Sequence record: OR842557
Reading direction: 5' to 3' (one strand)
DNA length: 64,000 nucleotides
From: Escherichia phage 04086
Shown here: positions 28,194 to 28,970 of the stretch, piece after piece
Numbering within the stretch: position 1 is the first letter of the stretch
How the letters are laid out: the number at the start of each line of letters is the position of its first letter
Position numbers and translations under genes: made by a program
The notes under the pieces: generated by a model
The model's input: the letters and a program-made list of their open reading frames with translations, nothing else
Told to the model about the DNA's origin: nothing
The model's database searches: none

Positions 28194-28416
28194 ACAAACT
28201 ACCGAACAGAAACTGCAGTCCGAAATCGTTCTTCTGAAATCCCGTATTCTTGATACCCAGGATGCTGTTGCTCAGGCCCAGCAGGAATCTCGTATCCTTC
28301 AGGAAGCCCTTGGTAAAATCTGTCACGCAGTTGGTATTGAAGGCGAGCAGATTAAAATTGATGATATCATCGATGCTGTTCAGGCCCTGGTTCCAGAAGC
28401 TTCTGACGAAGAATAA
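28186..28416 (+). CDS. 57A: tail fibre assembly chaperone gp57A
   Basis: 76-aa coiled-coil protein in the T4 57A position and of similar size. Confidence 0.8.
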
Positions 28417-28498
28417 TGAAAACCGAAGATTTTGCTCAAGGTCTATACGTTGCTGCAAAATTCTCTGAATTAACTTTAGATGCGCTGGAAAACCTTCA

Positions 28499-28597
28499 NT
28501 TCTGAAGAAGAATAATGAAAACCGAAGATTTTGCTCAAGGTCTATACGTTGCTGCAAAATTCTCTGAATTAACTTTAGATGCGCTGGAAAACCTTCA
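28499..28597. repeat. N-flanked duplicated block (assembly artifact) at the 57A/57B junction
   Basis: N at 28499; 28500-28597 repeats 28401-28498 with one substitution, duplicating the 57A end and 57B start. Confidence 0.75.
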
Positions 28598-28970
28598 GCG
28601 CACTTTAAAGGTTCCTAATCCAGTTCCTCGTGAAAAATTCCATTCTACAATCTGCTATTCAAGAGTCAACGTTCCATACACCGTTGCATCCGGAAGTTTT
28701 GAAGTTGCTTCGACCGGACATCTTGAAGTGTGGAAACACGGTGATTCTCCTGTCCTGGTCTTGGTTCTCAATTCAGAGTATCTTAAATGCCGCCATCAGT
28801 ATGCTCGTACCTTAGGTGCTACGCACGATTTCGATGATTATACCCCTCATATCACCCTGTCTTATAATGTAGGACCACTTACCTTTAGTGGAGATGTCCA
28901 GATTCCTGTTGTTTTAGACAGAGAATATAAAGAACCCTTGAAGCTCGACTGGGCTGAAGACCTAAAATAA
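28515..28970 (+). CDS. 57B: gp57B / Acb1-like 2H phosphoesterase (anti-CBASS cyclic-nucleotide nuclease candidate)
   Basis: 151 aa in the T4 57B position; two H-x-T/S motifs (HSTI near residue 43, HITL near residue 113) typical of 2H phosphoesterases. A first-copy start fragment lies at 28416-28498 (artifact duplication). Confidence 0.7.

Follow-up and report, generated by a model that had tools for sequence, protein, structure and literature searches.

Does the gene that follows 57A in Escherichia phage 04086 encode an enzyme that disables CBASS immunity, and is the doubled start from which it seems to be read a property of the genome or of its assembly? Both questions arise at a single locus of the window, by which we mean the whole stretch of 64,000 nucleotides from sequence record OR842557 that was analysed. 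An earlier note, made from the letters alone, had named the T4 gene in this position, 57B, as Acb1, and had proposed that its counterpart here is a 2H phosphoesterase extending from 28416 to 28970, with a start duplicated by an assembly artefact. Our analysis leads us to conclude, with high confidence, that the one complete reading frame of the region is the Dhakavirus orthologue of T4 57B/Acb1, a CBASS-disabling 2H phosphoesterase, and that the repeat at its 5' end is an unmerged assembly overlap. The features on which this conclusion draws are collected in Table 1.

Table 1. Coordinates of the acb1 locus, its neighbours and the tandem duplicates of the window
Feature	Position	Strand	Remarks
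Gene 1, dNMP kinase	27432..28193	+	Pfam PF21448 DNMK, E 4.6e-90
Gene 57A, tail-fibre assembly chaperone	28186..28416	+	Pfam PF17594 GP57, E 2.1e-26; TAA overlaps the 57B ATG after collapse
Left copy of the 98-nt duplication	28401..28498	+	3' end of 57A and first 83 nt of 57B; IME08 allele GAC at 28405-28407
N junction of two assembly pieces	28499..28499	.	Single N
Right copy of the duplication	28500..28597	+	Holds ATG 28515 of the sole complete 57B ORF in the raw sequence
acb1 (57B) CDS	28515..28970	+	151 aa plus stop; by homology, a 2H phosphoesterase predicted to degrade CBASS cyclic oligonucleotides; sole complete ORF of the region
First catalytic motif codons, H43-S44-T45 (T4 H44/T46)	28641..28649	+	Invariant in all 10 aligned sequences
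Second catalytic motif codons, H112-I113-T114 (T4 H113/T115)	28848..28856	+	Invariant in all 10 aligned sequences
Internal head protein gene (Ip9-like)	29048..29320	+	PHROG 7673, E 2.2e-56; position of ipI in T4
Tandem duplicate around N 23070	22920-23069 / 23071-23220		150 nt, 1 mismatch
Tandem duplicate around N 31385-31387	31179-31384 / 31388-31593		206 nt, 0 mismatches
Tandem duplicate around N 58705-58707	58274-58704 / 58708-59138		431 nt, 0 mismatches
Tandem duplicate around N 62704	62534-62703 / 62705-62874		170 nt, 3 mismatches
Tandem duplicate around N 63769	63387-63768 / 63770 to window end		7 mismatches

The protein belongs to the Acb1 family over its full length. It matched the Pfam Acb1 family (PF23474) with 197.5 bits against a curated cut-off of 27 (E 1.1e-58), and its residues 8-149 covered positions 1-144 of the 144-position profile. 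Among solved structures in the PDB, its best match was the Acb1 of phage FBB1 (7T26/7T27; E 2.1e-58, residues 9-148). By alignment, it is 84% identical over its full length to T4 gp57B, the founding Acb1, 99% identical to 57B of phage IME08 and ~65% identical to FBB1 Acb1. A tblastn search of phage records returned homologues in 1470 records, 1460 of them near full length; identity was at least 99% in 27 records and between 95 and 99% in 24 more, and fell to about 30% at the lowest. A scan against NCBIfam returned no family at E ≤ 1. A 2H phosphoesterase fold is implied by the identity of ~65% over 140 residues to crystal structure 7T26; a single-sequence AlphaFold2 model of the protein was too poor to use, with a mean pLDDT of 40 and a pTM of 0.32. 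The earlier note was correct that T4 57B is Acb1 (NP_049750.1; PMC9117128), and the profile comparison proposed in it gave matches far beyond chance.

The functional residues named for Acb1 are all in place. In T4 Acb1, published work names a catalytic tetrad (H44/T46/H113/T115), four residues that stack on the bases (Y12, W74, F107 and W147) and a contact to adenine N6 (E141), and the H44A/H113A protein is inactive (PMC9117128). All nine are found at equivalent positions in the window protein, as H43/T45/H112/T114, as Y11, W73, F106 and W146, and as E140. The protein has exactly two H-x-T motifs, 69 residues apart, which is also the distance from H44 to H113 in T4; in its translation, none of the other four histidines (H69, H75, H94 and H104) is followed by x-[ST]. 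At the level of sequence, its C terminus differs from the T4 lid segment LKLDWADDLK by one conservative change, the published lid numbering of residues 145-152 corresponding to about 144-151 here. We also aligned the protein with those of T4, FBB1 and IME08 and with seven more distant relatives, which come from phages of Serratia, Acinetobacter, Aeromonas, Vibrio, Cronobacter, Klebsiella and Salicola (62% to 28% identity). The tetrad does not vary in any of these alignments, among them one of 10 sequences that reaches down to 28% identity, and E140 is almost invariant in the alignment with the distant relatives. Thus, the two H-x-[ST] motifs that the earlier note had seen at the spacing of a 2H phosphoesterase are there, and both catalytic histidine motifs are kept on realignment, in close relatives as well as in relatives down to 28% identity.

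This assignment has to be weighed against the name that the gene carries in databases. PHROG 755 is described as "RNA ligase", the RefSeq name for 57B is "RNA ligase" in T4, IME08, RB69 and others, and the window protein itself gave a weak Pfam match to 2_5_RNA_ligase2 (PF13563, E 0.028). Taken at face value, these would make it a LigT-like 2'-5' RNA ligase or a general RNA-repair 2H enzyme acting on RNA ends and not on immune signals. We consider this most improbable. At 14.9 bits, the PF13563 match is below the cut-off of 27, so that the protein falls outside that family by the Pfam criterion; this match is also confined to residues 61-122, whereas the Acb1 match is full length. Moreover, T4 57B was identified by activity-guided fractionation as the enzyme that degrades 3'3'-cGAMP, Acb1 was crystallised with this ligand, and a T4 delta-acb1 mutant was made and examined both for cleavage in lysates and in plaque assays with CBASS (PMC9117128). 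For 57B/Acb1, we found no evidence of ligase activity in the literature consulted. The name "RNA ligase" appears to be a legacy, presumably handed down from similarity within the 2H superfamily. It persists in RefSeq for T4 57B (NC_000866; L002 1453-1911), and most records of Dhakavirus 57B are annotated "hypothetical protein" or "RNA ligase". PQ871103, a recent record, is the only one of those listed to give the name as "anti-CBASS protein Acb1".

If the window protein is Acb1, its mode of action can be sketched from that of its relatives. We infer its activity, substrate range and role in infection by analogy with T4 and FBB1 Acb1, from which the steps that follow are taken; the FBB1 structures revealed a 2H phosphoesterase fold (PMC9117128). 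On infection, a host CD-NTase would make a cyclic di- or trinucleotide that contains adenosine. The U-shaped pocket of Acb1 would capture this signal with its bases stacked on Y11, W73, F106 and W146, E140 would read the adenine N6, and the C-terminal residues (about 144-151) would form a lid that shuts on the ligand. Metal-independent acid-base catalysis by the H43/T45 and H112/T114 tetrad would follow, in which the adenosine 2'-OH would attack the 3'-5' bond to give a cyclic-phosphate intermediate, to be hydrolysed to a linear product with a 3'-phosphate. As a consequence, the Cap effector would never be activated and abortive infection would be averted.

Could the window enzyme nevertheless have drifted in what it recognises? 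It differs from T4 Acb1 by ~24 substitutions (84% identity, with ~16% of positions different), and the behaviour of Acb1 has been found to depend on the assay context (Panoptes study, PMC12657218). On these grounds, it might be a family member with shifted specificity, directed at a different second messenger than T4 Acb1, or mainly a binder and not a nuclease. That reading seems to us very unlikely, since every residue named as catalytic or base-contacting in T4 and FBB1 is identical in the window protein. In addition, nine of nine further cloned acb1 genes were active, each cleaving both 3'3'-cGAMP and cAAA (PMC9117128), and the crystal of FBB1 Acb1, which is only 65% identical to the window protein, shows that enzyme binding and cleaving 3'3'-cGAMP. 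We give similarly little credence to a subtler version, in which the ~24 substitutions would alter which substrates the Dhakavirus enzyme accepts, either by a gain on signals that T4 Acb1 spares or by a loss on decoy nucleotides; the latter might let the enzyme escape systems that sense anti-defence proteins. We saw no positive evidence for such a change, because every known ligand-contacting residue is unchanged. A divergence of ~16% does mean that the quantitative substrate preferences of the window enzyme could differ from those of T4 Acb1.

The second question concerns the start of the gene, which the raw sequence presents twice. Two 98-nt copies stand on either side of an N and, by repeat search and direct comparison, differ at a single base (28407 C versus 28506 A). 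The reading frame that opens at ATG 28416 in the first copy runs for 29 codons and ends at a TGA at 28503-28505. The mismatched base at 28506 lies 7 nt from where the right-hand piece begins, and at that site IME08 has the base found in the left copy. When a 401-nt query across the junction was compared with phage records, 51 matched, and in 12 of the 12 relatives listed 299-302 nt were spanned, as expected of a single copy. The arrangement recurs elsewhere in the window, which contains ten N-runs (at 2816, 3096, 22809, 23070, 28499, 31385-31387, 58705-58707, 62704, 63045 and 63769). Six of the ten sit between near-identical tandem copies, whose lengths are 98, 150, 170, 206, ~231 (truncated where the window ends) and 431 nt. 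Because the repeat is single-copy in the relatives listed, because N-runs elsewhere are flanked by duplicates of the same kind and because the mismatch lies near the end of an assembly piece, we read the repeat as an unmerged assembly overlap.

A true genomic duplication would have different consequences, leaving a 29-codon fragment of 57B after 57A and uncoupling the translation of 57B from that of 57A. The copies are indeed offset by 99 nt, which keeps the reading frame, and the one-base difference between the copies could reflect divergence after a real duplication event. However, the N falls exactly at the junction of the copies, their only mismatch is 7 nt from a piece end, where IME08 sides with the left copy, and the relatives listed have the junction once. 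The five other N-runs with tandem duplicates of this kind around them (150-431 nt) point to a systematic failure to merge overlaps. A genuine duplication therefore strikes us as extremely unlikely, and we treat the tandem repeat as having no biological meaning. In the real genome, 57B comes directly after 57A, with stop and start overlapping in TAATG. Removal of one copy leaves an identical 151-aa protein and restores this overlap, which fits the overlapping coordinates annotated for 57A and 57B in IME08 and suggests that translation of the two genes is coupled.

It follows that the earlier note was right to ascribe the doubled start to the assembly and to say that the raw ORF track places the gene at 28515. 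Of the extent that it gave to the gene, the part from 28515 to 28970 stands, and the part from 28416 to 28514 is a redundant copy plus junction in the raw sequence. The correction called for is to collapse the overlaps at N junctions, which at 57B makes the sequence 99 nt shorter (28499-28597, or the equivalent left copy). Elsewhere in the window, unmerged overlaps lead to spurious frame breaks and gene fragments for automatic gene callers. An antisense ORF of 132 aa (28159..28557) was also considered as a real gene and was rejected: it spans the artefactual junction and its N and lies antisense to 57A.

The genomic setting of the gene is that of 57B in T4-like phages. By DNA identity, the window comes from a Dhakavirus-type T4-like phage: over 2 kb around 57B, its identity to AnYang, C6 and IME08 is ~98%, and over the surrounding 14 kb its best phage matches are at 93-95% identity. 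The gene lies directly after the dNMP kinase gene and 57A and next to an internal-protein gene. The order of genes 4, 2, 3, 1, 57A, 57B, Ip, trna.4/.3/.2 and the tRNAs is that of T4 (NC_000866) and of IME08, and the order kinase-57A-57B is found also in Acinetobacter, Aeromonas, Vibrio and Serratia phages. Signals for expression were sought around the locus. In 27300-29700, 11 sigma-70-like hits were found against 7.6 ± 2.9 expected from shuffling, which is no excess over chance; none was assigned as an early or middle promoter. Upstream on the + strand, a T4-late-type TATAAATA occurs only at 24802, before gene 4; no terminator-like sites were found between it and 57B or in 27300-29700.

Several further features of the neighbourhood were noted. 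A 221-aa ORF for an HNH-type homing endonuclease (26094-26759, + strand; PHROG 655, E 2.7e-56) separates gene 2 (DNA end protector) from gene 3. This stretch is covered in 10 of 54 related phage records and is absent from IME08 and vB_EcoM_005; it is apparently a mobile insertion whose presence differs from one Dhakavirus genome to another. Beyond 57B, a promoter-like element (GTTTACA, 16-17 nt, TACTAT) occurs on either side of the internal head protein gene, at 28974-29027 and 29315-29369 on the + strand. The two copies are 84% identical over a 38-nt core, and in both the -10 region is contained in a strong stem-loop (fold z-scores -5.3 and -3.8). We take these elements to resemble the promoter-early stem-loop cassettes through which Ip genes are reported to be shuffled in T-even phages. 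The interval from 57B to Ip9 is ~430 nt longer in IME08 than its counterpart in the window, which fits a variable number of promoter/stem-loop cassettes. A pattern search for further cassettes returned only the copy at 29323 and two weak matches in a duplicated artefact region. Farther downstream, a 90-aa ORF with a GTG start (30384-30656, + strand) lies between trna.2 and the tRNA genes. Of the latter (30662-30818, + strand), only tRNA-Met (CAT) and tRNA-Arg (TCT) were detected; the IME08 annotation has Met, Asn and Arg there, and tRNA-Asn appears to be missing from this site in the window.

What, then, does the locus add? It shows that the gene for an anti-CBASS nuclease already well characterised is intact in a Dhakavirus-type phage, as is expected for T4-like phages given that homologues occur in 1470 deposited phage records. 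The gene is already known: it is an intact and ordinary member of an anti-defence family that has been characterised, and it raises no new question of biology. Its value is for annotation: it should be renamed acb1 (anti-CBASS protein Acb1) in place of "RNA ligase" or "hypothetical protein", and the record should carry a flag that the assembly holds several uncollapsed overlaps.

It is useful to set the window protein beside the systems to which it is related. It is like T4 Acb1 (57B) in its HxT/HxT tetrad, its stacking aromatics, its equivalent of E141, its lid (KLDWA[ED]DLK) and its position in the genome, and the ~24 substitutions between the two proteins include none at a named functional residue. 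Unlike T4 Acb1, it is one residue shorter at the N terminus, since T4 begins ATG ATG and the first of those codons is ATA in the window. The two genomes also differ downstream, where the Ip gene is Ip9-like in the window and ipI in T4. The Acb1 of the Erwinia phage FBB1, solved both as the apo form (7T26) and with 3'3'-cGAMP (7T27), aligns with the window protein at the tetrad and at most pocket residues, with one single-residue indel only; by contrast, FBB1 has a phenylalanine where the window protein has W73 and T4 has W74. Closest of all are the 57B proteins of other Dhakaviruses (IME08 ADI55463.1, MX01, AnYang and others), which are 99% identical and lie at the same locus; those relatives have one copy of the 57A/57B junction, whereas the raw sequence of the window has two.

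Two homologues of the Pseudotevenvirus type, from Cronobacter phage GAP161 (L006 262-885) and Klebsiella phage Roth27 (L007 259-882), are larger. These 57B/Acb1 proteins have 207 aa, with a C-terminal extension of ~55 aa that is absent from T4 Acb1, FBB1 Acb1 and the window protein.

Beyond the Acb1 family, the window protein has two features in common with the LigT/2'-5' RNA ligase branch of the 2H phosphoesterase superfamily (PF13563): a pair of HxT/S motifs and, around the second of these, a profile similarity that stays below threshold. It parts from that branch in that the substrate of Acb1 is a cyclic oligonucleotide and not an RNA end (PMC9117128). The comparison with poxvirus poxin is one of function. 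No sequence relationship between poxin and the window protein was detected here, and poxin acts on 2'3'-cGAMP in animal cells; yet it is, like Acb1, a viral nuclease that cuts a 3'-5' bond of cGAMP and thereby blunts cGAS-type immunity (PMC10419184).
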